Virus record (IMG/VR): IMGVR_UViG_3300045988_069864
Origin: a virus
Reading direction: 5' to 3' (one strand)
Length of the DNA stretch: 64,000 bases
A model generated the notes under the pieces. The model saw nothing but the letters and a program-made list of their open reading frames with translations, had not been told where the DNA came from and ran no database searches. Below are positions 1 through 34,705 of the stretch, piece by piece (positions within the stretch are counted from its first letter, which is position 1; each line of letters starts with the position of its first letter). Made by a program: the position numbers and the translations under genes.

Positions 1-2787
1 GAAAAACTAAAAAGTAAAGGCTGGACCGAGACACCTGAAAACATCAAGAACGAATTTGGTCTGACTACTACTCAATATCGAGCTCAGAAAGCATTGGCTA
101 AAGATGAACGTCGAGGCTATGACGTGGCGAGAGCTAAATCGTTGGAAAGTGACGGTTTGGGTCCTACTGCCATTGCCAAAAAGATGTCTGAAGAACAAGG
201 CAAAAACATCAACGAATCTACTATTCGTTCTTGGCTTAATGAAGAGTCCGAAGCTCGTATGAATCAGGCTAAACAGACTGCTGAATTTATTAAGAAACAA
301 ATCGACGAAAAAGGCATGATTGATGTCGGTGTTGGTGTTGAACGAGAACTTGGTATATCCAAAGAAAAACTTAATCAAGCACTGGCAATTCTCGAAGCTG
401 AAGGCTATGAGCTTTATGGCGGTCGTGTTCCGCAGGTTACTAATCCTAATCAAATGACCACTCTTAAAGTCATTTGTCCTCCTGGTACTGAACATAAAGA
501 TATTTATGACTACGAAAATGTACATTCTCTGAATGAATATATTTCTCGTGACGGTGGCGAAACTTACGAAAAGAAGTTCCACTATCCTGAAAGCATGGAT
601 GCTAGTCGTCTTATGATTCGGTATAAAGAAGATGGCGGTATCGATAAAGATGGTGTTATTGAACTTCGTCGAGGCGTTCCTGATTTGTCTCTTGGTGAAT
701 CTCGTATCTCTCAGGTTCGAATCCTCGTTGACGGTGACAGATATTTGAAGGGCATGGCTGTTTATTCGGATAATATGCCTGATGGTGTCGATGTTATATT
801 TAACACCAATAAGTCCAAAGACGTTGCTATGCGAGATGTCCTCAAAAAGATTAAGGATGATCCGGACAATCCCTTTGGTTCCGCTATCAAGGATGTGGAA
901 AAGGGCGGTCAGTATTGGTATGATCCTAAAACCGGTAAACAAGTATCGGCATCAACTCCTGGTGCTAAGTTGGGTCTGATCAATAAACGAGCTGATGAGG
1001 GCGATTGGTCTGAATGGAAAGATGCACTTCCTGCTCAGTTCTTGTCTAAGCAATCATTGCATTTGGCTAAACAGCAGCTGAACATTGCCGCTTCTGATAA
1101 AGAGGCTGAGTTTGCAGAACTAAGTTCACTTACTAATCCTACTGTAAAGAAGTATTTACTTAATAAATTTGCAGATGAGTGTGATTCAGCAGCTGTACAT
1201 CTTCAAGCAGCAGCTCTGCCTGGTCAGAAGTATCATGTTATATTACCTGTTACTTCTATGAAGGACACCGAAGTGTATGCTCCAAGGTATGAAAATGGAT
1301 CTAAGCTCGCACTTATTCGATATCCTCATGGCGGCACCTTTGAGATTCCTATCTTGACTGTTAATAATAAACAGAAAGACGCCAAAGCTTTGCTTGGCAC
1401 TGATATTTCGGATGCTATCGCTATCAATAGTAAGGTTGCTGAGCGTCTGTCTGGTGCCGACTTTGATGGCGATACCGTTATGTGTATTCCTACTCATGAC
1501 AAAGCTGGCAAGGTCAAGATTACATCTACGAATCCGCTTAAGGGTCTCGAAGGATTTGATCCCAAGACTTCTTATGGTGCTACGAAGACTGTCAAAGATT
1601 CCGATGGCACTGAACATTATCTTCGTAACGGTAAAGAATATAAGATTATGAAGAATACTCAGACCGAAATGGGTAAGATCTCTAATCTTATCAGCGATAT
1701 GACACTGAAAGGTGCTAATGATGACGAGTTAGCTAGAGCTGTTCGTCATAGCATGGTTGTCATCGATGCCGAGAAACATAAGCTTGACTATAAGCAGAGC
1801 GAGATCGACAATAACATCTCCGCTCTTAAGAAGGAGTACCAGAATGGCGGCGGTGCATCCACCTTGATCTCTAGAAGTAAAGGCGAAATCCCGGTTCTTA
1901 AACGACAGGGTAGCCCTATAGTCAATACCAAGACCAAGAACGGAAAACCCAACCCCGACTATGATTCTAGTAAGCCTGAAGGGTCTCTCATATGGAAGAC
2001 TGCCGATGATGTGAATTACCAGTATACAAAAGTAAACAAGAAAACTGGTGAAGTTACTACCATCACCAAGCAACGTACTCAGAAGAGTACTCGTATGGCG
2101 GAGACAACCGATGCACGTACCCTTATCTCGGATGCAGATACCCCCATGGAACGGGCCTATGCGGACTATGCTAACCATATGAAGAACCTGGCCAATAAGG
2201 CCCGCATTGAGGTATCCACTACCGGTAAGATAGCATACTCCTCTAAGGCTAAAGCTACCTATCAGACCGAGGTAAAGAGTCTCAATGATAAGCTGAATAA
2301 TGCCTTACTTAATGCTCCACGAGAGCGACAGGCTACCCTTAAGGCTAATGCAGAGGTACAGCGCAAGGTTGATGCTGCTAAGGCCGCTATCAAAAAAGAG
2401 AACCCCGAGGCCACTAATAGGGAGATTAACAAGCTTGTTCGTAAGAAGATTGATGTTAAGAAGACCGGACAGCAGGCTCTTACTAAATATCGTACTGAGG
2501 CTGGTTCTGTAAAACGTAGTGATCGATCTATTAAGATTACTGATAAGGAATGGGAAGCTATTCAGGCTGGTGCTATTAGTGAGAATGTACTTAAGAAGAT
2601 CCTTGCTAACTCTGACGTGGATAGTCTTAGACAAAGAGCAACGCCTCGTTCTACAACAACGCTTAGTACAGCTAAGATTAATAGAATCAAAGCTATGCGC
2701 GCTTCTGGTAAAACACTTAATGAAATCGCAAATGCGCTTAATGTTTCTGCATCAACAGTTGCAACTTATGTGAAAGGAGTGAATTGA
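1..2787 (+). CDS. Single-polypeptide two-barrel RNA polymerase homolog (YonO-like), 5' end cut by window edge
   Basis: Frame is open from nt 1; the track start at 94 is an internal TTG. Beta-like barrel signature DGDRYLKGMAVYSDNMPDGVDVIFN (nt 730-804; compare bacterial beta GDK..RHGNKG..EDMP..G..VDI.LNP). Beta-prime-like catalytic loop RYPHGG...LSGADFDGDTVM (nt 1318-1482; compare NADFDGD). HTH-like segments near both ends. Confidence 0.6.
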   Translation, partial: EKLKSKGWTETPENIKNEFGLTTTQYRAQKALAKDERRGYDVARAKSLESDGLGPTAIAKKMSEEQGKNINESTIRSWLNEESEARMNQAKQTAEFIKKQIDEKGMIDVGVGVERELGISKEKLNQALAILEAEGYELYGGRVPQVTNPNQMTTLKVICPPGTEHKDIYDYENVHSLNEYISRDGGETYEKKFHYPESMDASRLMIRYKEDGGIDKDGVIELRRGVPDLSLGESRISQVRILVDGDRYLKGMAVYSDNMPDGVDVIFNTNKSKDVAMRDVLKKIKDDPDNPFGSAIKDVEKGGQYWYDPKTGKQVSASTPGAKLGLINKRADEGDWSEWKDALPAQFLSKQSLHLAKQQLNIAASDKEAEFAELSSLTNPTVKKYLLNKFADECDSAAVHLQAAALPGQKYHVILPVTSMKDTEVYAPRYENGSKLALIRYPHGGTFEIPILTVNNKQKDAKALLGTDISDAIAINSKVAERLSGADFDGDTVMCIPTHDKAGKVKITSTNPLKGLEGFDPKTSYGATKTVKDSDGTEHYLRNGKEYKIMKNTQTEMGKISNLISDMTLKGANDDELARAVRHSMVVIDAEKHKLDYKQSEIDNNISALKKEYQNGGGASTLISRSKGEIPVLKRQGSPIVNTKTKNGKPNPDYDSSKPEGSLIWKTADDVNYQYTKVNKKTGEVTTITKQRTQKSTRMAETTDARTLISDADTPMERAYADYANHMKNLANKARIEVSTTGKIAYSSKAKATYQTEVKSLNDKLNNALLNAPRERQATLKANAEVQRKVDAAKAAIKKENPEATNREINKLVRKKIDVKKTGQQALTKYRTEAGSVKRSDRSIKITDKEWEAIQAGAISENVLKKILANSDVDSLRQRATPRSTTTLSTAKINRIKAMRASGKTLNEIANALNVSASTVATYVKGVN

Positions 2788-2789
2788 TC

Positions 2790-3038
2790 ATGGAAAACGT
2801 TTGTGCATTGACCACAATTGACAATCCTTTTGATCCTTTTGATCAATTCAGTCAATGGTTTCTCTTTGATACAGAAAAAGGTTACAATTCTTGTTCTTAT
2901 CTTGCTCGAATTGCACAAACTTCTGATGAAATGTCTGAACAAGAATACAATCATGAAGTTGAACGAGCAATTGACGAAATTGTCACGATTAATCCTTTAG
3001 GAATTTACAAGAAAGTAACCAAACCCCAGGTAAATTAA
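2790..3038 (+). CDS. Small conserved phage protein, function unknown
   Basis: ATG 2790 lies 10 nt after GAAAGGAG and the ORF overlaps the RNAP stop. 82 aa, acidic, no motif I can name. Confidence 0.5.
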   Translation: MENVCALTTIDNPFDPFDQFSQWFLFDTEKGYNSCSYLARIAQTSDEMSEQEYNHEVERAIDEIVTINPLGIYKKVTKPQVN

Positions 3039-3058
3039 AAAGATGTAGAGCTAATGAT

Positions 3059-3067
3059 GGGGGGGGG
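3059..3067. repeat. Poly-G tract (about G9) that can pair with CCCCCTCC at 3082-3089
   Basis: Homopolymer read directly from the sequence, in an otherwise AT-rich intergenic leader. Confidence 0.6.
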
Positions 3068-3225
3068 TCGCTAAAACTACACCCCCTCCTCACATCGCCG
3101 GCCTCCTTGAAAATTCTCCGGAGGGATTTTTCAGAAAAGCATTTATATTTGAGGTAATGACGATACCAGTACGCTTAAGGTCGAGGAAGTTACGAATTGA
3201 TTGAGAATTAGATTGCTATTTTCCT

Positions 3226-3326
3226 GGGTAGTGTTTAGACGAGTTCATAAGGTTGAATATTGGTCATACTTTGCGCTCCTTTCAGTGAATCGTTATTGAC
3301 CTTATGGGCTCCTTTAAGCACTACCC
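3226..3326 (+). promoter_or_regulatory. 28-nt imperfect inverted repeat (long hairpin) in the leader of the late operon
   Basis: GGGTAGTG..CATAAGGT (3226-3253) against ACCTTATG..CACTACCC (3299-3326). Both 8-nt ends are perfect and 7 of 12 internal positions match. The loop is 45 nt. Confidence 0.45.
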
Positions 3327-3375
3327 AAAACTGTAACTAAAGTCATTAATAACTGTATGAAAGGAGGCAGGATTA

Positions 3376-3720
3376 TTGGCTAAAGTTAAATCAAAACCAA
3401 AGTATTCTAAAGAAAACCAACCCAAAATAAGGCCAGCTCTTACCCCAGAAGCAAGAGAGAATCAGCTTATTTCTTTAGCAGTCGACTTAGTGGAACAGAG
3501 ATTGCTTGATGGTACTGCCTCTTCTCAGGAAACTACTCATTTTCTCAAACTCGGTTCTATGAAGAATCGTCTTGAGATGGAAAAACTTCAAGAAGAGAAC
3601 AAGTTACTCCAGGCAAAGACTGAAGCGCTTCAATCCGCTAAACGAGTTGAAGAACTGTATTCCGAAGCTATCTCTGCCATGCGTCGATATAGCGGTAATG
3701 GTGATCCTGATGAGTATTAG
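3376..3720 (+). CDS. Putative small terminase / DNA-packaging protein
   Basis: First gene of the late operon, TTG start after AAAGGAGG. 114 aa, basic N-terminus plus coiled coil. Its position upstream of HNH and TerL supports the call; the family assignment is not certain. Confidence 0.4.
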   Translation: MAKVKSKPKYSKENQPKIRPALTPEARENQLISLAVDLVEQRLLDGTASSQETTHFLKLGSMKNRLEMEKLQEENKLLQAKTEALQSAKRVEELYSEAISAMRRYSGNGDPDEY

Positions 3721-4159
3721 ACGATATTCCGAGCTAATTACCATTCCTACATACGAGGAACGATTTAAGTATCTTCAACTTAAAGGTGCTGTTGGCGCTG
3801 ATACCTTTGGCTATGATCGATATTTGAATCAGATTCTGTATAACTCTCCGGAGTGGAAGCGATTCAGAAATGACATCATCATTCGAGATAATGGCTGTGA
3901 TCTTGCTTGTGAAGGATATGAGATTAAAGGTTGGAAAGATCAAGAAGGTAAGATTCATAGAGCTAGAATAATCATTCATCATATGAATCCTATCACAGTC
4001 GACGACATTCTTAATCATAATCCAATGGTGTTTGATCCTGAGAATGTTATAACTACAGTTCTCAATACTCACAACGCCATTCATTACGGTGACGAGAAGT
4101 TATTAGTTACTGGACCAGTCACAAGGTCTCCTAACGATACGTGTCTCTGGCGAAAATAA
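3710..4159 (+). CDS. HNH endonuclease (packaging-associated type)
   Basis: ATG 3710 overlaps the previous stop. The protein has the IIIHHMNPI...N...LNTHNAIH H-N-H pattern. HNH genes next to terminase are typical of cos-type phages. Confidence 0.8.
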   Translation: MSIRRYSELITIPTYEERFKYLQLKGAVGADTFGYDRYLNQILYNSPEWKRFRNDIIIRDNGCDLACEGYEIKGWKDQEGKIHRARIIIHHMNPITVDDILNHNPMVFDPENVITTVLNTHNAIHYGDEKLLVTGPVTRSPNDTCLWRK

Positions 4160-4176
4160 TCAAAAGGAGAATAATT

Positions 4177-4518
4177 GTGGAAAGTATTCTGACATCAATT
4201 AAAAAGTTACTCGGAATCGCCGAAGAAGATACCAACTTTGATCAGGATCTTATTATGCATATCAACTCGGTATTCATGATCCTAACTCAACTTGGTGTTG
4301 GTCCTTCCAAGGGATTCTCCATCAAAGATGAGAATGACGTCTGGTCCGATTTTATACCAGAACAGTCTCCTCTCGAGGCAGTCAAAACTTATGTCTACAT
4401 GAAAGTTAGACTTATGTTTGATCCTCCTTTAAGTTCCGCAGTCGTAGACGCCATTAATAGAAACATCTCCGAACTTGAGTGGCGACTTAATGTTGGTGCT
4501 GAGAATGGAGGTGAGTAA
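4177..4518 (+). CDS. Putative gp6-like head-tail connector / packaging accessory protein
   Basis: GTG 4177 lies 7 nt after AAAGGAG. The N-terminus ILTSIKKLLGI..D..FD.DLIMHINSVF resembles gp6-like connector proteins. Confidence 0.4.
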   Translation: MESILTSIKKLLGIAEEDTNFDQDLIMHINSVFMILTQLGVGPSKGFSIKDENDVWSDFIPEQSPLEAVKTYVYMKVRLMFDPPLSSAVVDAINRNISELEWRLNVGAENGGE

Positions 4519-4519
4519 T

Positions 4520-4792
4520 ATGACAGAATGGATGGTTGCTGGGATCGTTGTAACAATTATTGGCGGTGGTTGGGCAGTTATTAAAGCTATTTCCGGTATT
4601 GTTCAACCATTGACAGAACAAATCACAAGACTCAATGATAGCATGAAATCGATCACTAATGATATGAACGAACTTACTGAACGAAACAGTAAAACTCATA
4701 CCCGATTGTTTCAAGCTATCGAAGAGCATGGTAAAATGCTAAGCGAACATGAAATTCGAATTGTAAAACTGGAAGAACATGAAAAGAAATGA
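4520..4792 (+). CDS. Small membrane protein, N-terminal TM helix plus coiled coil (BhlA/XhlA-like architecture)
   Basis: ATG 4520 follows GGAGGTGAG. The TM segment is MVAGIVVTIIGGGWAVIKAI, followed by a heptad-like charged tail. Confidence 0.4.
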   Translation: MTEWMVAGIVVTIIGGGWAVIKAISGIVQPLTEQITRLNDSMKSITNDMNELTERNSKTHTRLFQAIEEHGKMLSEHEIRIVKLEEHEKK

Positions 4793-4809: not shown

Positions 4810-5364
4810 ATGAAGTCTTATAATCACTCTGAAGAACTCTATCATCATGGCATCAAAGGTATGAAATGGGGTGTCCGGCGCTATCAGAATTCCGATGGTT
4901 CGCTTACTGCGGCTGGTCAGAAACGATACGCGAGAGATGCTCGAGAAAAAGAATTTAATAAGTATGATTCGTCCACTAAGACATATTACAAAACGTCTAA
5001 GAAAAATGGGCGAAGTGATTTGGAAGCAGATCCTAAACGTTATGCTAAAGAGGATCTATCTCGAACCAAAAAACTTGCTGACGAGTCAGCCAATCTTACA
5101 AGAAATCTAAAAACTGCTAATGATCAGGCTATCAAAAGTAAACCCAAGACTCGAATGGACCTTAGCAAGATGACTGACCAGGAGATGCGGGAAAAGATTA
5201 ATCGAGAATTACTTGAACGACAGTATAACGATGTCTTTAATCCTCCTACTGTTTCTAAGGGTCGGGAGTATGCAAGCAAAGTTCTCGATACTACTGGTAC
5301 TGTTTTGGCTATTACTAGTTCCGCATTGGGAATCGCCCTGGCTATTAAAGATCTTAAGGGGTGA
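4810..5364 (+). CDS. YHHG-motif paralog 1 of 4 (unknown function)
   Basis: ATG 4810 follows GAAAGGAGGG. N-terminus is ELYHHGIKGMKWGVRRYQNSDGSLTAAGQKRY. The body is Lys/Arg-rich and there is a C-terminal hydrophobic helix. Confidence 0.7.
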   Translation: MKSYNHSEELYHHGIKGMKWGVRRYQNSDGSLTAAGQKRYARDAREKEFNKYDSSTKTYYKTSKKNGRSDLEADPKRYAKEDLSRTKKLADESANLTRNLKTANDQAIKSKPKTRMDLSKMTDQEMREKINRELLERQYNDVFNPPTVSKGREYASKVLDTTGTVLAITSSALGIALAIKDLKG

Positions 5365-5372
5365 TCGTCAAA

Positions 5373-6428
5373 ATGGAATTGTATCACCACGGAATCAAGG
5401 GACAGAAGTGGGGCATTCGCCGGTATCAATATGCTGACGGTACTTATACTCCTGCTGGTAGGAAGCGATACGGCGTTAGTCAAAGTTCAAGTAATGCTCA
5501 ACGTGTTGCAACCATGATGGGTATGAGAGTAAAAGATGTGGTTAACACAGCGAGAACTCAAGTTACCGGAAGACAGTATGTTGATACATATCTGAAACGA
5601 GGTACAACATTTGCAAGAATTCAAACTTCTAAAGAGTTTGAAAATTTTGCATTCTACGCCACTTATAAGAAGGCTGACTCTGATAAGTATATGGGTCTGT
5701 TTGGGAAGAATCTGACTAGTCGTGCAAACAGTGATGCTAAGCGAGCAGAGAAAACAGCCAATGCTTCCGGTAGTGAAGCTGATGCCGCCACAGCTAAGCA
5801 ACTTCGAGATAAAGCTAACAACATGAAAGTTTATCAGCTGAAGCTAGAGACTACTAAGAAACTGAAAGTTCCGTCAGATGAGAATGCTAGTGACATCACT
5901 GCTAATCTACTGAAAGACTCTGAGTTTAAGAAGAATGTTGTTGCTTCAATTGAGGACTCGAAGGAAAAGATGCGTCGTCCTACTCAACAGGTCTTGTTTA
6001 AGCAAGCTCAAAATGCTTTGAATAAAGATCCGAGTAGGATGACAACTTCAGAGAAGGTTGCAGTCTACAAAGCTTTGAATCTGTCTTTGACTAATCACAA
6101 TCAGCAGGAAGTTGCAGCTCAGGCTAAGTTCTACTCGGAACTAAAGAAGAAAGGTTACAATGCACTGCTCGATTATAATGACAAAGATTATTCGAGTTAT
6201 CATGCTAAGCGACCAATGATCGTGTTCGATACTGACTCCGTGAAGCTTCAATCAGTGGCTGAGGCTAATCCGAAGGTCGTGGAAAAGATGTATGCGAAGT
6301 ATAACGCTGAACGAATCATGAAGGAAGTCGGAGCCAATACAATTGGCTATGTCGGCAAACTTGGTAAAAAGACTGTATCCGAATGCGAATCTTATGTGAA
6401 ACAGAAAACTGACAGCTATTTGAGTTAA
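5373..6428 (+). CDS. YHHG-motif paralog 2 of 4
   Basis: N-terminus is ELYHHGIKGQKWGIRRYQYADGTYTPAGRKRY. At 351 aa it is the longest member. Confidence 0.7.
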   Translation: MELYHHGIKGQKWGIRRYQYADGTYTPAGRKRYGVSQSSSNAQRVATMMGMRVKDVVNTARTQVTGRQYVDTYLKRGTTFARIQTSKEFENFAFYATYKKADSDKYMGLFGKNLTSRANSDAKRAEKTANASGSEADAATAKQLRDKANNMKVYQLKLETTKKLKVPSDENASDITANLLKDSEFKKNVVASIEDSKEKMRRPTQQVLFKQAQNALNKDPSRMTTSEKVAVYKALNLSLTNHNQQEVAAQAKFYSELKKKGYNALLDYNDKDYSSYHAKRPMIVFDTDSVKLQSVAEANPKVVEKMYAKYNAERIMKEVGANTIGYVGKLGKKTVSECESYVKQKTDSYLS

Positions 6429-6433
6429 TTTTA

Positions 6434-6443
6434 GGGGGGGGGG
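6434..6443. repeat. Poly-G tract G10 immediately upstream of paralog 3
   Basis: The 22-nt gap between stop 6428 and ATG 6451 reads TTTTA-G10-TAGATTA. The count is fixed by the flanking ORF coordinates. Confidence 0.9.
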
Positions 6444-6450
6444 TAGATTA

Positions 6451-7170
6451 ATGAATTCCAATGAACTTTACCACCATGGCGTCAAAGGCATGAAATGGGG
6501 TGTTCGCAAAGATCGATCTAGCTACACATCGACTGGACTTAGAGCTGCTATTGCTAGAAGACAGAATGAAAAAGTAGATGCGAACTTTAAAAACTGGAAA
6601 GAAAATTCTGAGAAAAGGACCAATGCCATTGAGCTCGGCAAGAAAATGAACCAATCCAAGATGGCATACGAAAATAACAAATCCGATAAGACATTTCGGC
6701 AGACGTATAAGCAGGACAGTAAAGCTTATAAAAAGGCTCTTAGAAGTAACACTACTTATCGCAAAGGTCAGATTAAGCAGGAAGTTGGTCAGGATGCTTC
6801 TCGGAAATACCTGAGCGAAGCTAAAAAGATAAAGAAACAGTTGGATTCCGATCCTTCTAATAAGCAGCTCCAAAAGAAGTATAATGATCTGATGAGTAAG
6901 CACGACATTGAACGAGCTAATGCTCGTAGAGCTCCAGAAGTAGCAGCGAACCGGTCTAGAAAGAAAGCTGCCATCAAGAGAGCGATGACAATGTCCGTAA
7001 AAGCTGCAGCTACAACCGCTGTTGTTACTGCTGGAACATACGCGGTAAATAAGTATTTGTCAGATCATAATGTAACTTTGAATGGCAACAATCTTCGAGT
7101 CGATTCTAACATGGTCAACACATTTAGTAATGCTGTCAAAGTTGGTAGCGAAATTTTTAAGTATATTTAA
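6451..7170 (+). CDS. YHHG-motif paralog 3 of 4
   Basis: N-terminus is ELYHHGVKGMKWGVRK. The body is K-rich with a hydrophobic segment near the C-terminus. About 43 nt of the 5' end is identical to paralog 4. Confidence 0.7.
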   Translation: MNSNELYHHGVKGMKWGVRKDRSSYTSTGLRAAIARRQNEKVDANFKNWKENSEKRTNAIELGKKMNQSKMAYENNKSDKTFRQTYKQDSKAYKKALRSNTTYRKGQIKQEVGQDASRKYLSEAKKIKKQLDSDPSNKQLQKKYNDLMSKHDIERANARRAPEVAANRSRKKAAIKRAMTMSVKAAATTAVVTAGTYAVNKYLSDHNVTLNGNNLRVDSNMVNTFSNAVKVGSEIFKYI

Positions 7171-7207
7171 CATTTGAGTTCCAGATTAAAGGAGGTGACA
7201 ACTCTAA

Positions 7208-7795
7208 GTGGATTCCAGTGAACTTTACCACCATGGCGTCAAAGGCATGAAATGGGGTGTTAGGCGGTATCAGCGTGAAGATGGTACTCGTACTATTGCT
7301 GGACAGAAGCACGCTCAGACATTAACCGGCGGAGTTGCTGGTGTGATCAGAAAGAAGCAGCGCAGTAATGCTGAAAAAGACTTAGCACGAACGATCTCTA
7401 AGCAAAAGCAAGTCAATAGTGAACTGCGTGAACTTCGCGGTTATTCAAAAAACCCAAGTAAAATCGGTCGTTCAAAATTGGCTACTGCTATTCGAAATCA
7501 GCAGATTAAGTCTTTGGAACGGACCAATTCTAAGCTCGACCAGCGTAAAAAAGAGAGCACGAGCGCTTTGAAAGAGCTGAAACAGATCGATGAATATCAG
7601 GCAAAGAAAGCTGCCGACAGAGCGCAGAGGAAACTCGCTAATGCAAAGATCAAAGATCTTCAGAAGAAGTATGGGCGTCTCGAAGATCAGATGACTTATG
7701 GTAAAAACGCCGACACTAAGGCTAACGCTCGTATTCAGAAGCAGATGTCTAGTATCGACACTCAGATTAACAAGCTTAAAAAGTCTACACGATAA
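7208..7795 (+). CDS. YHHG-motif paralog 4 of 4
   Basis: GTG 7208 lies 9 nt after AAAGGAGGTGA. N-terminus is ELYHHGVKGMKWGVRRYQREDGTRTIAGQKH, followed by a K/R/Q-rich coiled-coil-like tail. Confidence 0.7.
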   Translation: MDSSELYHHGVKGMKWGVRRYQREDGTRTIAGQKHAQTLTGGVAGVIRKKQRSNAEKDLARTISKQKQVNSELRELRGYSKNPSKIGRSKLATAIRNQQIKSLERTNSKLDQRKKESTSALKELKQIDEYQAKKAADRAQRKLANAKIKDLQKKYGRLEDQMTYGKNADTKANARIQKQMSSIDTQINKLKKSTR

Positions 7796-7809: not shown

Positions 7810-9555
7810 ATGGCATTATCAAATACTGCCGTGCCAATCTATTACGGCCAGTTTCGTGATGCCGTATTGAGAGGCGAAATTCCAGTATGTAAAGAAATCT
7901 CTATGGAGATGAACCGAATAGATGGACTCATTGCAAACCCCGGCATTTGGTATGATGACCAAGCTGTCGAGGGTTTTATTGCATTTTGTGAGAATGAACT
8001 TACGTTGACTGACGGAGAAGACCTTAAGCTTCTAGATTCATTCAAACTTTGGGCTGAGTCAATTTTCGGTTGGTATTACTTTGTAGAGAGAAGTGTATAT
8101 GTTCCGTCTCCGGATGGTCATGGCGGTCACTATGAAAGAAAGTCTATTAAGAAACGATTAGTTAACAAGCAATATCTCATCGTTGCTCGCGGTGCGGCTA
8201 AATCAATGTATGGTGCATGTCTTCAGAGTTTCTTCTTGAATGTGGATACCTCAACTACAAATCAGATCACGACTGCTCCGACAATGAAGCAGGCTGAAGA
8301 AGTTATGAGTCCAATTCGAACCGCAATTACTCGATCCCGTGGACCATTGTTTAAGTTCTTAACCGAAGGTTCACTTCAGAATACGACCGGATCTAAAGCC
8401 AATCGTCAGAAGCTTGTACCTACCAAAAAGGGTATTGAGAATTTCTTAACTGGTTCTCTTCTTGAGATCCGACCGATGACAATCGACAAGATTCAGGGTT
8501 CTCGTGCGAAGATCTGGACAATCGATGAATGGCTTTCTGGCGATGTTCGAGAGGACATTGTTGGTGCTGCTGAACAGGGTGCTTCCAAGAACGACGACTA
8601 TCTGATCGTAGCTATCAGCTCAGAAGGTACCGTCCGTAATGGTAGTGGTGATACGATCAAAATGGAATTGATGGACATCTTAAAAGGTGATTACATCAAT
8701 CCTCATGTGTCAATCTGGTGGTACAAGCTGGATGACATTGACGAAGTCGCTAATCCTGATATGTGGCTCAAAGCCAACCCGAATCTCGGTAAGACTGTCA
8801 GCTATGAAACTTATCAGCTTGACGTCGATCGAGCCGAAAAAGCTCCTGCTACACGAAACGACATCCTGGCAAAGCGCTTCGGTATTCCGTGCGAAGGCTA
8901 TACGTATTACTTTACGTACGAGGAAACTCTTCCTCATCGGAGACGAGATTACTGGAGTATGCCGTGTGCACTTGGCGCTGACCTTTCTCAGGGCGATGAC
9001 TTCTGTGCATTTACGTTCATGTTTCCATTGTCCGATGGTTCATTCGGAATCAAGACTCGTAACTACATAACCGAGCTTACATTGATGAAGCTTCCCGGTG
9101 CTATGCGGAACAAGTACAACGAGTTCATGCGCGAAGGAAGCTTAATTGTTATGCCCGGAACTGTTCTTGACATGATGCAAGTTTATGAGGATCTGGATGA
9201 CCACATCGCCAAGTGCGAGTATGACGTTCGTTGCTTCGGTTTCGACCCCTACAATGCTCGTGAGTTTGTAGAACGATGGGAAAGAGAGAATGGTCCTTTT
9301 GGTATTGAAAAAGTCATTCAGGGTGCCAAAACTGAGTCTGTGCCTTTGGGTGAACTGAAGAAACTTTCTGAGGAAAGAATGCTTAGGTTCGATGAAGATC
9401 TTATGACTTTCGCTATGGGTAACTGCATTACTTTGGAAGATACCAACGGTAACCGTAAACTTTTGAAAAAGCGATATGATCAGAAGATCGATGCTGTTGC
9501 AGCTATGATGGATGCTTATGTGGCATTCAAACTTAATCGAGAAGCATTTGAATAA
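7810..9555 (+). CDS. terL: Terminase large subunit
   Basis: 581 aa. The N-terminal pattern (YYGQFRD..L.GEIP....I......ID) and overall layout are typical of TerL, and the gene precedes portal. Confidence 0.85.
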   Translation: MALSNTAVPIYYGQFRDAVLRGEIPVCKEISMEMNRIDGLIANPGIWYDDQAVEGFIAFCENELTLTDGEDLKLLDSFKLWAESIFGWYYFVERSVYVPSPDGHGGHYERKSIKKRLVNKQYLIVARGAAKSMYGACLQSFFLNVDTSTTNQITTAPTMKQAEEVMSPIRTAITRSRGPLFKFLTEGSLQNTTGSKANRQKLVPTKKGIENFLTGSLLEIRPMTIDKIQGSRAKIWTIDEWLSGDVREDIVGAAEQGASKNDDYLIVAISSEGTVRNGSGDTIKMELMDILKGDYINPHVSIWWYKLDDIDEVANPDMWLKANPNLGKTVSYETYQLDVDRAEKAPATRNDILAKRFGIPCEGYTYYFTYEETLPHRRRDYWSMPCALGADLSQGDDFCAFTFMFPLSDGSFGIKTRNYITELTLMKLPGAMRNKYNEFMREGSLIVMPGTVLDMMQVYEDLDDHIAKCEYDVRCFGFDPYNAREFVERWERENGPFGIEKVIQGAKTESVPLGELKKLSEERMLRFDEDLMTFAMGNCITLEDTNGNRKLLKKRYDQKIDAVAAMMDAYVAFKLNREAFE

Positions 9556-9575: not shown

Positions 9576-10823
9576 ATGGGTTTTATAGACCGGCTTCAGC
9601 ATGGATGGAACGCATTCATGAGCAGAGCCCCCACTGGAAGCTATTACGACATTGGACAGAGCTATTCATATCGACCGGATCGAGTGGTTTTTACCCGAGG
9701 CAATGAACGTTCCATTATTACGTCGGTATACAACCGAATTGCTTTGGACGTTTCTGCAATCAATATCAAACATTGCCGTCTGGATAATAATGATCGATAC
9801 ATGTCTGTAATCGACTCTGGTTTGAATAGCTGTTTGAATCTGGAGGCTAATATCGACCAAACTGGACGAGCCTTCATCCAGGATATTGTCATGTCGATGC
9901 TGGACGAAGGTTGCGTAGCTATTGTTCCAGTCGATACGTCTATCGATCCCAAGGTGAGTAGTTCGTACGATATTTTATCGATGCGAACTGGTAAGATCTT
10001 GGATTGGTATCCGGAGCATGTGAAAGTTCGACTCTATAATGAGCGAACAGGTAATAAGGAGGAAATCATCGTCCCGAAGAAAACGGTGGCGATCATTGAG
10101 AATCCTCTTTATGCAGTGACTAATGCTCCTAACTCAACAATGCAACGTCTTATTAGGAAGCTTAGTCTACTCGACGTAACAGATGAGAAGACCGCTTCAG
10201 GTAAATTGGATTTGATCATTCAGTTGCCCTATGTTATTAAGACGGAAGCTAGACGTCAACAAGCCGAAACAAGGCGCAAAGATATCGAGATGCAGCTTGC
10301 CGGAAGTAAGTATGGTATTGCGTACACGGATGGCACTGAAAAGATCACACAGTTAAATCGTTCTGTTGAGAACAATCTTATGTCTCAGATTGAATACTTG
10401 ACGAGCATGCTTTATAGCCAGTTAGGTATCACTCAGAGTATTTTGGATGGTTCTGCAGATGAGAAAACTATGCTGAACTACCATAATCGAACTATCGAAC
10501 CAATTGTTTCTGCGATTGTTGACGAAATGAAACGAAAATTCTTAACTAAAACTGCTCGGTCACAACAGCAGTCTATCTTGTTCTTTAGAGATCCGTTTAA
10601 ACTTGTTCCGTTGAATGACATCGCTGAAATTGGCGATAAATTTACCAGAAATGAGATTATGACGTCTAATGAAATTAGGCAAATCATTGGTATGACACCG
10701 TCTAACGATCCGAAGGCTGACCAGTTGGTTAACAGTAATCTGAATCATCCCGATGAGGAGTCTATGGTACCTGCGGTTTTGACCGAAAACTCTAACGAAG
10801 GGAGAATAAATCAAAATGGTTAA
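9576..10823 (+). CDS. Portal protein
   Basis: 415 aa, immediately after TerL and before the protease-capsid gene. Its size fits HK97-type portals. Confidence 0.7.
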   Translation: MGFIDRLQHGWNAFMSRAPTGSYYDIGQSYSYRPDRVVFTRGNERSIITSVYNRIALDVSAINIKHCRLDNNDRYMSVIDSGLNSCLNLEANIDQTGRAFIQDIVMSMLDEGCVAIVPVDTSIDPKVSSSYDILSMRTGKILDWYPEHVKVRLYNERTGNKEEIIVPKKTVAIIENPLYAVTNAPNSTMQRLIRKLSLLDVTDEKTASGKLDLIIQLPYVIKTEARRQQAETRRKDIEMQLAGSKYGIAYTDGTEKITQLNRSVENNLMSQIEYLTSMLYSQLGITQSILDGSADEKTMLNYHNRTIEPIVSAIVDEMKRKFLTKTARSQQQSILFFRDPFKLVPLNDIAEIGDKFTRNEIMTSNEIRQIIGMTPSNDPKADQLVNSNLNHPDEESMVPAVLTENSNEGRINQNG

Positions 10824-12645
10824 ATGCGATTTTGCTGGTTGGGCCACGCGAAACGATTTGTTGTGTGGCGATGGCAGAATTATTAAGAAAGATGCGTTTA
10901 AGGATAACGATGGCGACACGGTATCGTTGGTTTGGAATCACGATCATTCTGATCCTAATGCAGTTCTGGGTCATGCTCTGCTTGAGAATCGAGACGAAGG
11001 TGTTTATGCATATTGCACCTTCAATGACACTGAGCAGGGTCGAAACGCCAAGGAACTGGTTCGTCATGGTGATGTAAGTGCTCTTTCCATTTATGCTAAT
11101 AAGCTGAAACAGAATGGTAAAGAAGTTGTTCATGGTGCAATTCGGGAGCTGAGTCTCGTACTTGCTGGCGCTAATCCCGGTGCATATATCGATTTCGTCA
11201 TGGCTCACAGTGACGATGGCGAAGAATCTGTAGATGGTCTGTATGCTGGATACAATGAAAACATTGTGCTCTATCATTCGGATGAGTCTAGTAATGAAAC
11301 TGACAGTAAAAAGGAGGATTCCAAAGTGGCAGAAGAAACTAAGAAGCCCGAGAGTGAAAAGACTGTTAAAGATGTGTTCGATACTCTCAATGAAGAGCAG
11401 AAGACCGTTGTTTACGCACTGATTGGTCAGGCATTGGAAGATGCCGGTGTTAGTGACGATGACAATGATGCTAATAACGATGACAACAAGGAGGACGACG
11501 AGATGAAACACAATGTATTTGACAATGATGATCAGGAGATGGATAATGTTCTGACTCATTCCGCCATGAATGATGTTCTGGACCTGGCTAAGACGCCCAG
11601 TGTGGGTAGCTTCAAGCAGGCCATGAAAATCTACGAGAATGAGAATGAGCTTCAGCATGACGCTTTCGATAGCGAGACCATGGACATGCTGTTGCCGGAG
11701 TATAAGCTGATCGATCCTGCCGAACCGAAGATTCTGTATCCTGATGACACTTGGGTGTCCAGCGTTATCAATGGTGTACATAAGTCTCCGTATAGCCGTG
11801 TCCGTACTCGTCGTGCTGATGCTCGTCAGGCTGAACTGCAGGCCCTGGGTTACAAGAAGGGTGACTACAAGAAGGAAGGTCAGAAGATCAAACTGCTGGG
11901 TCGTACTCACGATGCTCAGACGGTTTATGTAAAAGATAAGATCAACCGTGATGACGTTCTGGACATCACTGATTTCGACATCGTCGCTTACCAGTGGAAG
12001 ATCATGCGTCACGCTATGGACCAGACTCTGGCCACTGCAATTCTGATTGGCGATGGTCGTGATGATCTGGACCCGGATAAGATCAAGGAAGATCACATTC
12101 GTCCTATTTGGAAGGATGATGATATGTACTGCATCCATCAGGATATCGATATCGCTTCCGCTAAGGCAGAACTTCAGGGCACCAATACTGGCGCTAATTT
12201 CGGCGAGAACTACATTTATGCTGAAGCAATCATCACTGCTGCTCTGTATTCTCGTGAAAAGTATAAGGGTTCTGGCAATCTGACTTTCTTCTGCACTCCG
12301 CATCTGCTGAATGTCATGCTGCTGGCTCGTGATCTGAATGGTCGTCGTATCTATTCTTCTAAGAATGATCTGGTTGCAGCACTGAACGTTAAGGATATTC
12401 AGACCGTCGAACAGTTTGAGGGTCTGACTCGTACCACTACTGATAGCAAGACTAAGAAGCTGCTGGGTCTGTTCGTTAATCTGGCTGACTATCAGCTGGG
12501 CTGTGTCAAGGGCGGCGAGATTACCAAGTTCGAAGGCTTCGATATCGATTTCAACCAGCACAAACTGCTGCTGGAGACTCGTGCTTCTGGTGCCTTGGTT
12601 GAGTGGTATTCCGCTATTGCTCTGGAAGAAGACGTTACTGAATAA
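10816..12645 (+). CDS. Prohead protease (HK97/S78-like) fused to HK97-fold major capsid protein
   Basis: The N-terminal ~180 aa carry LVWNHD...VLG...SIYA...IRELSLVLAGANPGA. An acidic ~80-aa linker (DDDNDANNDDNKEDDE) follows, then a ~350-aa capsid-sized C-terminal part. No separate scaffold gene is present. Confidence 0.65.
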   Translation: MVKCDFAGWATRNDLLCGDGRIIKKDAFKDNDGDTVSLVWNHDHSDPNAVLGHALLENRDEGVYAYCTFNDTEQGRNAKELVRHGDVSALSIYANKLKQNGKEVVHGAIRELSLVLAGANPGAYIDFVMAHSDDGEESVDGLYAGYNENIVLYHSDESSNETDSKKEDSKVAEETKKPESEKTVKDVFDTLNEEQKTVVYALIGQALEDAGVSDDDNDANNDDNKEDDEMKHNVFDNDDQEMDNVLTHSAMNDVLDLAKTPSVGSFKQAMKIYENENELQHDAFDSETMDMLLPEYKLIDPAEPKILYPDDTWVSSVINGVHKSPYSRVRTRRADARQAELQALGYKKGDYKKEGQKIKLLGRTHDAQTVYVKDKINRDDVLDITDFDIVAYQWKIMRHAMDQTLATAILIGDGRDDLDPDKIKEDHIRPIWKDDDMYCIHQDIDIASAKAELQGTNTGANFGENYIYAEAIITAALYSREKYKGSGNLTFFCTPHLLNVMLLARDLNGRRIYSSKNDLVAALNVKDIQTVEQFEGLTRTTTDSKTKKLLGLFVNLADYQLGCVKGGEITKFEGFDIDFNQHKLLLETRASGALVEWYSAIALEEDVTE

Positions 12646-15291: not shown

Positions 15292-16695
15292 ATGAGTAAC
15301 AGTCCTTTGGTTGTTTATACAAAAATCAGTCCTAACCGAAATAGTCCTCGTAATCGGCCGATTCGTAAGATCACCATTCATCACATGGCCGGTAATCTGA
15401 GTATTGAGCGATGTGGTGAAGTATTTGCACCGGTTAGTCGCCAAGCTTCTAGTAATTATGGTATTGGTACTGACGGCCGAATCGGAATGTATGTTGAAGA
15501 GAAGGATCGTGCTTGGACAAGTTCTAGTCCGGAGAATGATCATCAGGCTATCACGATCGAAGTGGCTAATGATGAGATTGGTGGGCAGTGGCATGTTTCT
15601 GACAAAGCTATGGTCTCTCTGATTAACTTGTGTGCCGACATTTGTAAACGCAATGGTATCAAGAAGCTGAACTATACCGGCGACAAATCTGGTAACTTGA
15701 CGATGCATTGTTGGTTTGCAAATACTCTTTGTCCAGGTCCGTATTTGAAGAGTAAATTCCCTTATATCGCCGAAGAAGTGAACAAGCGTCTTGGCCAGAG
15801 TTCTGCAAATCAAACCGGAACTCAAGCCGCTGATTTGGGAAGCCTGTCTGAAGAGGCGATCATATCTAAAATCGGCCCGTTGTTTACTGCCGATCAGAAG
15901 AAGACTGGCGTTCTGGCATCTGTATCTATGGCTCAGTTTATTCTTGAATCCGCTTATGGCAAAAGCGAGCTTGCTAAGAATGCTAACAACTGTTTTGGCA
16001 TGAAGACTCAGTTGTCCGGTAATACTTGGTCGGGTTCTACTTGGGACGGAAGTGTTTATATCAAAGAAACTAAAGAGTTTACGAATGGCACATATACGAC
16101 CATCACTGCAAATTTTCGTAAGTATTCGTCCATTGAAGATTCTATTGCCGACCATTCTGCATATTTGCTTGGCGCTATGAACGGTTCCAAGAAGCGTTAT
16201 GAAGGTTTGAAAGGTGAACCTAATTATAAGAAAGCTGCTCAGCTGATTAAGGATGGCGGTTATGCAACATCACCTACTTATGTCGAGAACCTTTGCAAAG
16301 TGATCGAAAAATGGAATCTTACCAAATACGAATGTAAACAGACAGAAAGTGAGTCTAGTGATATGGCATTTCCTAATGTCCCGTTTGCGGTAACGGTACT
16401 TGTAAACGATTTGAACTATCGTTCGGAGCCTTCTATGAAGGGGGCTGTTAAGGGTCAGACTGGTAAAGGCATCTTCACGATTGTCAAAGTTTCCGATGGT
16501 TGGGGTAAACTCAAATCTGGTGTTGGTTGGATTTGGCTTGGAAACAGTGACTATTGCACTTTTGAAAAGCCTGCCGCTCCTAAATCTATTTGGGACACTA
16601 ACGGACCATGGCGAATTGAAGGCGCTACTGGTACTGATAAAACTGCGTTGAAAGAAGTATGTGAGAAATACGGTCTTAAGGTGACGTCTATCTAA
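15292..16695 (+). CDS. Peptidoglycan hydrolase: N-acetylmuramoyl-L-alanine amidase + glucosaminidase + SH3-like domain
   Basis: Amidase_2-like ITIHHMAG...SSNYGIGTDGRI...AITIEVAN. Glucosaminidase-like AQFILESAYGKSELAKNANNCFGMK. SH3-like VNDLNYRSEPS...GWGKLKSGVGWIW. Confidence 0.8.
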   Translation: MSNSPLVVYTKISPNRNSPRNRPIRKITIHHMAGNLSIERCGEVFAPVSRQASSNYGIGTDGRIGMYVEEKDRAWTSSSPENDHQAITIEVANDEIGGQWHVSDKAMVSLINLCADICKRNGIKKLNYTGDKSGNLTMHCWFANTLCPGPYLKSKFPYIAEEVNKRLGQSSANQTGTQAADLGSLSEEAIISKIGPLFTADQKKTGVLASVSMAQFILESAYGKSELAKNANNCFGMKTQLSGNTWSGSTWDGSVYIKETKEFTNGTYTTITANFRKYSSIEDSIADHSAYLLGAMNGSKKRYEGLKGEPNYKKAAQLIKDGGYATSPTYVENLCKVIEKWNLTKYECKQTESESSDMAFPNVPFAVTVLVNDLNYRSEPSMKGAVKGQTGKGIFTIVKVSDGWGKLKSGVGWIWLGNSDYCTFEKPAAPKSIWDTNGPWRIEGATGTDKTALKEVCEKYGLKVTSI

Positions 16696-16706: not shown

Positions 16707-17084
16707 ATGATCACATTTAGACAAAAGGGTGACTTTTCTAAGTTAACTCAATACTTGGAAAGAGTAAAGGGGGTCGTTAAATTAAGTCAACTTGATAAAT
16801 ACGGCCAACAAGGTGTAGCTGCCCTTTCGTCTGCGACACCAGTTGATTCAGGATTGACGGCTACTTCTTGGTATTATAAGGTCGAACATCAAAATGGTTC
16901 GACTTCGATTAATTTCTATAATTCGAATACGAACAAAGGGGTCAACATCGCCATCATTTTACAGTATGGTCATGGAACTCGCAATGGTGGCTGGGTTCAG
17001 GGTCGAGATTATATCAATCCTGCAATTCAGCCTATTTTTGATAAGATCGCGAATGATGCATGGGAGGAGGTTACTAAAGTATGA
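16707..17084 (+). CDS. HK97 gp10-like neck/tail-terminator family protein
   Basis: 125 aa with the pattern GVAALSSATPVDSGLTATSW...ILQYGHGTRNGG, which is typical of that family. Confidence 0.55.
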   Translation: MITFRQKGDFSKLTQYLERVKGVVKLSQLDKYGQQGVAALSSATPVDSGLTATSWYYKVEHQNGSTSINFYNSNTNKGVNIAIILQYGHGTRNGGWVQGRDYINPAIQPIFDKIANDAWEEVTKV

Positions 17085-33247: not shown

Positions 33248-34705
33248 TTATGCAAATTTCCAGTAGACATGAAGATCTTCTTCGTCTACGACAATCTCTT
33301 TAATCAGCTCTTGTACAAGGGCTTTGATCTCGTCAATATCTCCACTATCAATCACATCACACAAACTCGATGCGATTTCTACAGCTTCTTCTTTTGACAT
33401 CTTCTCTTTATTTTCTAAAGATCTCATGTTAACTTCTAGCTTTTCTTTTTCAGCGAGCAATGCATCGGTTCTACTCTTAATCACATTTATATCTAGAGTT
33501 CCAAGAGTATATAAATCTATCAATTTATCAAGTTGTGAATCTATTTCTTCGATACGTTTGGAGATGACTTTTATTTTCATCGCATTCTCATCGCTTTCGG
33601 TTGAACCAATATCAAACGATTCCGGATGTAATGCAAGTTTACGAACTTCATCAAACACTTCTTTCTCGAGTTCTTCAGCTTTCCAAATTTTATTTTTGCA
33701 ACGTTCTTCTTTGGGTATGTCTTTCCACTTACCAGCACGACAAGATCGTTTGTAGCAATTGCAATACAACTTCGCACTGTTCTTGGTCTTCGCTCGACGG
33801 AAGAAGAACTTATTTCCGCAGTGACCGCAACGTATCATTCCAGCAAGAGGAGCATTAATTCGAGATATACGACTGTTAGCATCTTCGTCACGCTCGGCTA
33901 GTATAGCCTGTGTTTTTTCAAATGTTTCCTTATCTATAATCGGTTTGTGAATTCCTTCGTACCATTCACCTTTATATGATACCATGCCGATATAATGCTT
34001 ATTTTCTAGCAATGGTCTAATATTATGTCGATTCCAGTTTCCATCGTAAGTAGTTCTATACCCCTTTGATTGTAGCATTTCTGCAACTCGTCTTTGCGAT
34101 ATTCTCATGTTGAACAGTCTAAACATTTCTCGAATTTGCATTGCCTCATATTCGTGGACTACGAGTTCATCATTTTCGACTCGATATCCGATAGGTACGT
34201 AACGACTACCACACCATTTTCCTTCTTTGGCTCTACCGATCTTACCAACTTCCATACGCTCTTTTATTTGTTCACGTTCAAGTTGGGCGAAAACACTTAG
34301 AATACCAATCATAGCTCGTCCGAACGGCGTACTCGTATCTAGATTCTCAGTCATACTAATGAAATCTACGTTGTTTGGAAGGAACACGTCCTCGATAAGA
34401 GTCAGTGTATCCTTCTGCGAACGTGAAAGTCGATCGAGTTTATATACTAAAACGGCGTTGACCTTGTTACTTTCTGCATCTTTAATTAAAGACTGTAGTC
34501 CGGGACGATCTGTGTCTGCTCCAGAGTAACCAGCATCTGTGTATATTTTATGAACTACCCAACCTTTAGCTTCACAGTATTTAATCATTCTCTCAGTTTG
34601 TTCATTGATAGAGTATCCATCCTTAGCTTGCTCTAATGTAGATACGCGTGGATATAATGCTACACGCATGGCGTTTCTATTGACCACTCCGTATGTTTCG
34701 CCCAT
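33248..34705 (-). CDS. int: Large serine recombinase (integrase)
   Basis: Resolvase-type N-terminus (YPRVSTLEQ...GYSGA..DRPGL...VLVYKLDRLSRS), a recombinase domain, Cys-rich zinc ribbon (CGHCG...CNCYKRSC) and a C-terminal coiled coil. Confidence 0.9.
   Translation of the reverse strand: MGETYGVVNRNAMRVALYPRVSTLEQAKDGYSINEQTERMIKYCEAKGWVVHKIYTDAGYSGADTDRPGLQSLIKDAESNKVNAVLVYKLDRLSRSQKDTLTLIEDVFLPNNVDFISMTENLDTSTPFGRAMIGILSVFAQLEREQIKERMEVGKIGRAKEGKWCGSRYVPIGYRVENDELVVHEYEAMQIREMFRLFNMRISQRRVAEMLQSKGYRTTYDGNWNRHNIRPLLENKHYIGMVSYKGEWYEGIHKPIIDKETFEKTQAILAERDEDANSRISRINAPLAGMIRCGHCGNKFFFRRAKTKNSAKLYCNCYKRSCRAGKWKDIPKEERCKNKIWKAEELEKEVFDEVRKLALHPESFDIGSTESDENAMKIKVISKRIEEIDSQLDKLIDLYTLGTLDINVIKSRTDALLAEKEKLEVNMRSLENKEKMSKEEAVEIASSLCDVIDSGDIDEIKALVQELIKEIVVDEEDLHVYWKFA

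Follow-up and report, generated by a model that had tools for sequence, protein, structure and literature searches.

DUF7211, a short conserved module joined to hypervariable tails in the head-assembly operon of a cross-phylum siphophage lineage

The viral DNA analyzed here (IMG/VR record IMGVR_UViG_3300045988_069864; 64,000 nt, one strand, 5' to 3', referred to as the window in its full length) belongs to a temperate siphophage having the gene order of a lineage that crosses bacterial phyla. Four tandem genes (P1 to P4, positions 4810-7795) encode proteins which start with the same short module, DUF7211, and diverge thereafter. DUF7211 genes reside in two slots of the head-assembly operon of this lineage, at least one copy being found in each relative sampled. 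Their tails are hypervariable and feature, in some members, toxin or enzyme domains, and in a phage nearly identical to the window two of the four genes have recombined within the DNA encoding the module. By analogy with the capsid-targeting sequences of phage T4 and with MuF toxins, DUF7211 may be a tag for the head incorporation and demarcation of polymorphic cargo, a reading to which we assign a probability of about 0.45.

The four genes and the DUF7211 family

The genes and two landmarks of P1 are the following.

4810-5364, + strand: P1, DUF7211 protein of 184 amino acids (aa), pI 9.7; alternative ATG at 4789; match to phrog_32444 (E = 1.5e-26)
5373-6428, + strand: P2, DUF7211 protein of 351 aa; match to phrog_7502
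6451-7170, + strand: P3 gene, 239 aa; the cassette, ribosome-binding site (RBS) included, spans 6414-7173
7208-7795, + strand: P4, DUF7211 protein of 195 aa, GTG start, pI 10.45; basic Lys/Arg/Gln-rich tail
4834-4929, + strand: motif of P1, ELYHHGIKGMKWGVRRYQNSDGSLTAAGQKRY; preceded by N-H-S, as are internal copies in the polyproteins of relatives
5290-5346, + strand: hydrophobic helix of P1, TTGTVLAITSSALGIALAI, aa 161-179; Kyte-Doolittle 19-residue maximum 1.64

A purine-rich, Shine-Dalgarno-like RBS precedes each gene, and the intergenic gaps of 8-37 nt leave no room for an immunity gene. The motif ELYHHG[IV]KG[MQ]KWG[VI]R starts 2-9 residues past the start of each protein, and exactly four copies of it were detected by a six-frame scan of the window. 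Open reading frames, six-frame scan and Pfam matches all bear out the original prediction, made from the sequence alone, of four + strand genes sharing one motif, and P1-P4 are true paralogs at the motif level. The same prediction held that the motif could not be assigned to a family of known function. A Pfam scan identifies it as DUF7211 (PF23847), an uncharacterized family described by a 25-position model to which no function is attached. The E-values of P1, P2, P3 and P4 (1e-10, 3.4e-4, 1.6e-11 and 1.7e-10, respectively) indicate that sharing of the motif is not due to chance. P1, P3 and P4 score 41.3, 43.9 and 40.5 bits, above the gathering score of 27; P2 scores 20.4 bits, the same positions being aligned and every invariant residue kept.

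The conserved unit, which marks basic proteins of the late operon, is longer than the Pfam model, spanning about 35 residues (..ELYHHG[IV]KG[MQ]KWG[VI]RRYQxxDGxxTxAGxKRY), and many family members feature in addition an N-terminal, hairpin-like extension of the type H[SD]..F[IV]x[DN]GxLxL. The RYQ..DG..T.AG.K portion, correctly described as usual, is found in P1, P2 and P4 and is missing in P3. The location of the motif at the N-terminus, also noticed at the outset, holds true for P1-P4 and not for the family at large, in which the motif recurs internally in polyproteins. Each of P1-P4 is a basic protein (pI 9.7-10.5, net charge +13 to +29). Tails of low complexity, as predicted, are carried by P1, P3 and P4; the tail of P2 is a conserved domain with many invariant residues, common to actinophage members. 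Two hydrophobic helices had been placed near the C-termini. That of P1 is clear and Gly/Ala/Ser-rich, similar segments being present in the P1-like units of proteins P0124, P0132 and P0186; that of P3 is only weak (Kyte-Doolittle 1.07).

A run of ten G residues (6434-6443) makes up the region upstream of P3 to which the ribosome binds. The near-identical phage L002 has an interrupted run (GGGGGGAGGGG) at both occurrences of the upstream sequence. The run could be a slippage-prone tract.

The size of the family was monitored with a profile of the P1-P4 N-termini, which retrieved 32,633 representatives of clusters formed at 50% identity at E <= 1e-3, and 13,760 at E <= 1e-10. PHROGs distributes P1-P4 among several families of unknown function, and no matches for the four proteins were found in NCBIfam. 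PDB sequence searches with the motif profile and with a P2 profile matched no solved structure. A literature search found no mention of DUF7211 or PF23847, motif strings matching only unrelated papers (on plant coilin and spinocerebellar ataxia); DUF7211 genes are likewise not mentioned in the papers on the lineage that were examined. Many predicted proteins of 33-70 aa (among P0391-P0510) contain hardly more than the DUF7211 motif, some of them being encoded on long contigs (P0426, 49 kb; P0446, 56 kb). They may be either remnants of recombination or frameshift, or genuine mini-proteins.

Distribution, recombination and tail variation in the lineage

The backbone of the window is shared by Lactococcus phage 1706, Faecalibacterium phage FP_oengus, the Rhodococcus phages Pepy6 and Poco6, and Arthrobacter, Gordonia and Streptomyces phages (bioRxiv 10.1101/842583). 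Related prophages were found in Faecalibacterium, Ruminococcus, Lachnospiraceae and Clostridium leptum genomes. Three genes delimit two slots, slot A reaching from the connector gene to terL, and slot B from terL to the portal gene.

4141-4518, + strand: head-tail connector protein (Phage_connect_2; Pfam E = 7.5e-41), left border of slot A; phrog_4247, "virion structural protein"; conserved synteny
7810-9555, + strand: large terminase (TerL), dividing slot A from slot B; TerL_nuclease, E = 6.8e-33; phrog_9, E = 2.4e-109
9576-10823, + strand: portal protein, right border of slot B; Pfam Phage_portal, E = 2.5e-19; phrog_12

In the 115 loci which hold connector, TerL and portal genes, the number of DUF7211 copies per phage varies from one to seven, and 336 of 353 motif copies (95%) lie in slot A or B, on the same strand as the head genes. 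At least one copy was present in 70 of 70 relatives found through portal homology alone, slot A being occupied in every case; no locus of this portal-retrieved sample has more than four copies there, the number found in the window. In a sample collected by DNA pattern, in arbitrary order, 103 of 120 matches adjoin head genes of the lineage. The layout recurs in Gordonia, Rhodococcus and Arthrobacter phages and in Lactococcus 1706, and single phages illustrate the range: six motifs are distributed in gp13 and gp15-18 of Gordonia phage Pherobrine, around terL; Poco6 has seven DUF7211 genes, FP_oengus one, in slot B, and 1706 one two-motif gene, in slot A. P1-P4 all reside in slot A, in line with the position rule of the lineage, and slot B is empty in the window. 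The original prediction had regarded the location as not standard; the synteny survey shows that it is the rule in the lineage. Given the occupancy of the two slots and the presence of copies in all portal-retrieved relatives, the array of the window is at the high end and not an unusual insertion. Though rich, it is a commonplace instance of a feature found throughout the lineage and undescribed in the literature searched.

P3 and P4 are identical at 50 of 53 nt from just past the start codon, and share a motif-coding stretch.

6463-6504, + strand: P3 copy of the 42-nt identical stretch; crossover point of the P3::P4 chimera in L002
7220-7261, + strand: P4 copy of the 42-nt identical stretch

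The identity had been put at about 43 nt; it is real, and measures 42 nt. In L002, a phage about 99% identical to the window, the order is P1, P2, a gene made up by the 5' end of P3 and the body of P4, TerL, P3, portal. The junction of the chimera falls inside the stretch common to P3 and P4, and the P3 cassette (6414-7173), with its own RBS, is 98.9% identical to L002 positions 5726-6484, between terL and the portal gene. The close relative L003 has the same gene order as the window. A recent event had been proposed to explain the identity of P3 and P4, and the chimeric gene, joined inside the stretch, confirms a recent recombination. Chimera and relocated P3 together indicate that the motif-coding DNA is a real crossover point, and that cassettes move between slots. 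Only 2.4% of motif pairs reach a synonymous codon sharing of at least 0.9; the identity of P3 and P4 thus goes back to one recent event and does not reflect a general tendency. Concerted evolution of the motif DNA within genomes was considered and rejected, the difference in synonymous codon sharing (0.51 within vs. 0.375 between genomes) being confounded by codon usage.

Tails of 279 non-redundant proteins fall into 97 clusters, 74 of which are singletons. The P1-type tail is the commonest (90/279 proteins). The P2-type cluster has 34 members, including Pherobrine gp16 and gp17, CapnMurica gp8 and Pepy6 gp017, and the P3-type and P4-type tails are rare (clusters of 4 and 6 members, respectively). 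P1 and P2 are common tail types, P3 and P4 rare accessory types. The assumption that the P1 tail is universally detectable was discarded, tblastn revealing it in 15 of 80 portal-retrieved loci, because tails diverge too fast.

Known domains found in tails are Gln_amidase/Tox-PL1 ("papain fold toxin 1"; 10/150), GNAT (about 7) and 2H phosphoesterase (2). Members with Gln_amidase fall in the P1-type cluster. The P2 tail was tried as a hidden Gln_amidase and rejected, as ten P2-type tails gave no match. Ntox50 is located behind DUF7211 in proteins of relatives having the architecture DUF5662-DUF7211-Ntox50, which are predicted RNase toxins and are encoded among the non-structural genes of the lineage (L188, positions 2385-4778, same contig as L029; L165, L179, L190, L196, L262, L265 and L269). 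No gene of this architecture is found in the window. In L188, the open reading frame that follows resembles by eye the RNA ligase RtcB, and the two genes suggest a toxin plus RNA-repair pair. Further DUF7211 fusions are encoded by genes of the actinophages Pherobrine (L082, 6344-8032 and 10206-12080) and Poco6 (L085, 9112-10728) whose annotations read "hypothetical", "RNA ligase" or "acetyltransferase"; the products are a LigT-like 2H phosphoesterase joined to DUF7211, and DUF7211-GNAT-DUF7211. The toxin domains that occur in fusion with MuF head proteins include both Ntox50 and Tox-PL1 (Zhang et al. 2012, PMC3482391), and phage heads are the predicted carriers of MuF-fused toxins (PMC3482391; Jamet et al. 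2017, PMC5576092). A Pfam scan at E <= 1 gave no match to the MuF domain (Phage_Mu_F) in P1-P4.

DUF7211 units are also found concatenated. Polyproteins feature two to five motifs per chain among the best-scoring library representatives, and six in L161, the median unit spacing being 259 aa. In one case a polyprotein of 1642 aa takes up slot B, from terL to the portal gene, and thus corresponds to a fused gene array. A basic stretch and an H-[S/D/N/T] dipeptide stand before each internal motif, often followed by the hairpin-like segment F[IV]x[DN]GxLxL; by count, H[SDNT] occurs upstream of 66% of internal copies vs. 8% of background windows. Similar dipeptides are found in the linker of the gene next to the portal gene.

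10816-12645, + strand: prohead protease (S78) fused to the major capsid protein via an acidic linker; Peptidase_S78, E = 6e-7; phrog_3270, E = 7e-203

The linker (about 11400-11700) is acidic and Asp/Asn-rich, and includes the islands MKHNVFD (11503-11523), LTHSAMN (11551-11571) and LQHDAFD (11650-11670). An island of the type (M/L)(K/S)HN(V/A)F is kept from gut Firmicutes phages to 1706, Pherobrine and Poco6. The xHN[VA]F island may be a maturation cleavage site, or the former N-terminus of the capsid protein. The recurrence of H-[S/D/N] upstream of the motifs and in the linker would be consistent with shared sites for the prohead protease.

Gene neighborhood of the window

Other features of the window are listed below.

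94-2787, + strand: YonO-like two-barrel RNA polymerase, 897 aa, with C-terminal helix-turn-helix (HTH); phrog_4291, E = 0
3376-3720, + strand: protein of 114 aa with basic N-terminus and coiled coil; phrog_4259 ("unknown function")
4475-4792, + strand: protein of 105 aa with one transmembrane segment and a coiled coil; phrog_1009; weak Rz-like spanin/holin-type matches
33248-34705, - strand: large serine recombinase; CcrB/XisF-like matches, E about 1e-49

The YonO-like RNA polymerase (94-2787) is the hallmark gene of the cross-phylum lineage, and homologs showing about 45% identity are found in some 250 records of Arthrobacter, Gordonia, Streptomyces, Rhodococcus and Lactococcus phages. The gene for the 114-aa protein adjoins the HNH gene in all relatives, including 1706 (orf4), Poco6 (gp010) and Pherobrine (gp8). 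The original prediction had located the array between small and large terminase genes. No match of the 114-aa protein to small terminases (TerS) was found in Pfam, NCBIfam, PHROGs or PDB sequence searches, and its identification as TerS, a guess from position, was rejected as unsupported by them; the protein is a small-terminase candidate by position only. The HNH endonuclease gene is separated from the array by the connector gene (4141-4518) and by the gene for the membrane/coiled-coil protein (4475-4792). The latter shares 44 nt with the 3' end of the connector gene and lies directly upstream of P1.

The DNA of terL (7894-9518) is 71-73% identical at the nucleotide level to terL of Gordonia and Streptomyces phages, the GC content of the window being about 40-44%; such conservation across phyla is unusually high at the DNA level. 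The large serine recombinase indicates a temperate lifestyle, in agreement with prophage copies in Faecalibacterium and other Clostridia. A protein of 467 aa, endolysin-like and made up by Amidase_2 and glucosaminidase domains (15292-16695, + strand), is encoded within the tail module, between tail-chaperone-like genes and an open reading frame of tape-measure size (1784 aa, 17081-22435). In actinophage relatives the lysin gene is found upstream of terL, unlike the endolysin-like gene of the window.

Possible roles of the DUF7211 module

Among the roles envisaged by the original prediction, the one best supported by the comparative evidence is that of proteins which reside inside the capsid or are ejected, and which have an N-terminal signal for targeting or processing in common; this evidence consists of the label of 1706 ORF7 and the fusions to Tox-PL1/Gln_amidase and Ntox50. 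ORF7 of phage 1706 is a slot A protein of 462 aa with two DUF7211 motifs, labelled "structural protein" by the depositors. In the same record in-silico calls are marked as "putative", and neighboring genes of the structural module as "unknown"; the records of Pepy6 and Poco6 cite 1706 ORF7 as a structural protein. The structural labels of 1706 reportedly derive from virion mass spectrometry carried out by Garneau et al. in 2008. The label is the only experimental hint of virion presence, and concerns a relative.

If DUF7211 is a tag for head incorporation and demarcation, the module would dock its bearer inside the procapsid before DNA packaging, portal and protease/capsid fusion being candidate docking partners. 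The variable tails would be the cargo and end up in the head. The cargo is proposed to stay with the DNA because it is basic, and would probably enter the cell alongside it. The module would also mark the boundaries of units, polyproteins being probably cut at the H-[S/D/N] residues upstream of modules by the prohead protease, the candidate processing enzyme. Its coding sequence would serve as a homologous-recombination handle by which tails are swapped and cassettes moved. AlphaFold2 modelling of the motif alone (122 sequences) yielded a pLDDT (predicted local distance difference test) of 66 and a small hairpin plus helix with no independent fold, which would fit a peptide folding on a partner. 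The model of P2, obtained from a shallow alignment of 20 sequences, had a pLDDT of 57; a Foldseek search of this low-confidence model against PDB gave no usable match, the best E-value being 0.88 (weak otubain matches).

The same data lend themselves to a wider and more tentative formulation, which may well prove wrong. DUF7211 would be a portable capsid-loading peptide not recognized so far, which in siphophages takes the part of the T4 capsid targeting sequence and of the cargo peptides of encapsulins, with a polymorphic repertoire, shuffled by recombination, delivered along with the DNA and polyproteins cut by the capsid-fused protease. The lineage so equipped would span phages of gut Clostridia, lactococci and Actinobacteria, and the cargo would comprise RNase and papain-fold toxins, acetyltransferases, phosphoesterases and many basic proteins.

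Several observations speak against a head-incorporation tag. The sole link to the virion, the label of 1706 ORF7, concerns a relative and none of P1-P4, and was taken from a database record. Pfam and NCBIfam scans found no recognizable toxin or enzyme domain in the tails of P1-P4, P2 falls below the Pfam gathering threshold, and the AlphaFold2 models are of low confidence and derive from shallow alignments. The H-[S/D/N] residues may belong to the domain itself or be left over from former N-termini, and not be cleavage sites. DUF7211 need not be N-terminal either: it is found mid-protein, and outside the head module, in DUF5662-DUF7211-Ntox50, and this position before Ntox50 fits a pre-toxin or boundary role as well as targeting.

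The main alternative, in our opinion unlikely, is that DUF7211 is a pre-toxin or demarcation module and nothing else, a boundary for processing and recombination before exchangeable effector tails, in proteins which act late in the producing cell or are released at lysis as bacteriocin-like toxins and are not packaged. This would be in keeping with the motif being directly before Ntox50 in proteins encoded among non-structural genes, preceding Gln_amidase, flanking GNAT domains and recurring at every unit boundary of polyproteins, as with the use of its coding sequence as a crossover point; the idea that pre-toxin domains act as processing sites is well established (PMC3482391). Yet 95% of the copies lie within the head-assembly operon (connector, terminase, portal), optional toxins would not usually be present, as DUF7211 is, in all relatives sampled, ORF7 of 1706 bears a structural label, and most tails, including those of P1-P4, have no toxin domain. 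Location in the head module, universal presence of at least one copy and the label of ORF7 would all fit accessories of the portal vertex or of the capsid interior (scaffold-like, head-completion or DNA-condensing proteins) which are required to assemble the head or stabilize the DNA and are not delivered as effectors, the motif being an oligomerization or portal-binding element. The long, helical and basic tails agree with such a function, and the fusion of protease and capsid protein leaves the lineage without a separate gene for a scaffold. Structural accessories are nevertheless quite improbable: copy number (1-7) and tail sequence vary even between near-identical phages, which is atypical for parts of a conserved shell, and fusions to toxin, GNAT or phosphoesterase domains make no sense for a scaffold. 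Known scaffolds are moreover usually acidic or neutral and encoded between portal and capsid genes, whereas P1-P4 lie upstream of terL, in several variable copies with pI values of 9.7-10.5.

Very little credit is given to the hypothesis that DUF7211 proteins are packaging accessories, either TerS equivalents or cofactors, which bind DNA by their basic tails and TerL by the motif. The genes directly adjoin terL, the tails are basic, no recognizable TerS is found in the lineage, and one polyprotein gives Pfam matches to HTH/sigma-70 region 4-like and Phage_terminase small-subunit domains. Small terminases are, however, single conserved genes, and number, order and sequence of DUF7211 genes vary freely; half of the copies are located after terL, the enzyme and toxin fusions are out of place, and the 114-aa protein (3376-3720) is a better TerS candidate by position.

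A head-incorporation tag finds its closest parallels in two known systems. Like DUF7211 proteins, MuF toxins (SPP1 gp7-like; PMC3482391, PMC5576092) are encoded by genes adjoining terminase and portal genes of temperate phages of gut Firmicutes, join a conserved N-terminal part to exchangeable C-terminal domains, Ntox50 and Tox-PL1/Gln_amidase occurring in both systems, and are predicted to be packaged in the head. DUF7211 proteins differ because they lack the MuF domain, have a conserved part of about 35 residues instead of about 300, are present as 1-7 paralogs per phage instead of one, and may be concatenated into polyproteins; most of their tails, P1-P4 included, carry no known toxin, and the occurrence of at least one copy is seemingly universal in the lineage.

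The internal proteins of phage T4 (IPI, IPII, IPIII, Alt) likewise carry a short common N-terminal tag on unrelated, mostly basic proteins, some of which are enzymes or anti-host factors. Their locus varies among relatives, and a prohead protease is encoded nearby. There is no sequence relation to DUF7211, and T4, a myovirus, builds its scaffold core separately. Some 10 residues long, the T4 tag is removed by cleavage; DUF7211 is longer and found internally as well, and its cleavage is only putative. Localization in the head was shown for the T4 proteins; for DUF7211 proteins it is predicted.

Two more systems share single traits with DUF7211. The PT-VENN module of CdiA and the end of the Rhs core (PMC3482391) are short conserved motifs directly before variable tails, their coding DNA being a site of tail swapping by homologous recombination, and may be processing sites; in contrast, DUF7211 is encoded in a phage head-assembly operon and not in a secretion system, and usually stands at the extreme N-terminus of small proteins. 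The inner-body paralogs of phiKZ are tandem paralogous proteins of the head interior processed by the prohead protease. Sequences are unrelated, phiKZ is a giant myovirus, and homology among its paralogs is full-length and not restricted to a short tag.

DUF7211 comprises about 32,600 clusters at 50% identity and is unmentioned in the literature searched. Cultivable hosts and phages are available (1706, FP_oengus, and many SEA-PHAGES phages of Gordonia, Arthrobacter and Streptomyces). Even if DUF7211 is not a tag, a clear case of cassette shuffling via a conserved coding handle inside an essential operon remains. If it is, the tag would explain a feature of a lineage common in the human gut (Faecalibacterium, Ruminococcus and Lachnospiraceae prophages) and among soil actinobacteriophages, and the stretch of about 35 residues might be usable to load foreign proteins into phage capsids. 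A short tag joined to exchangeable tails would represent a second, MuF-independent route by which toxins and host-modifying enzymes are carried in the heads of temperate phages.

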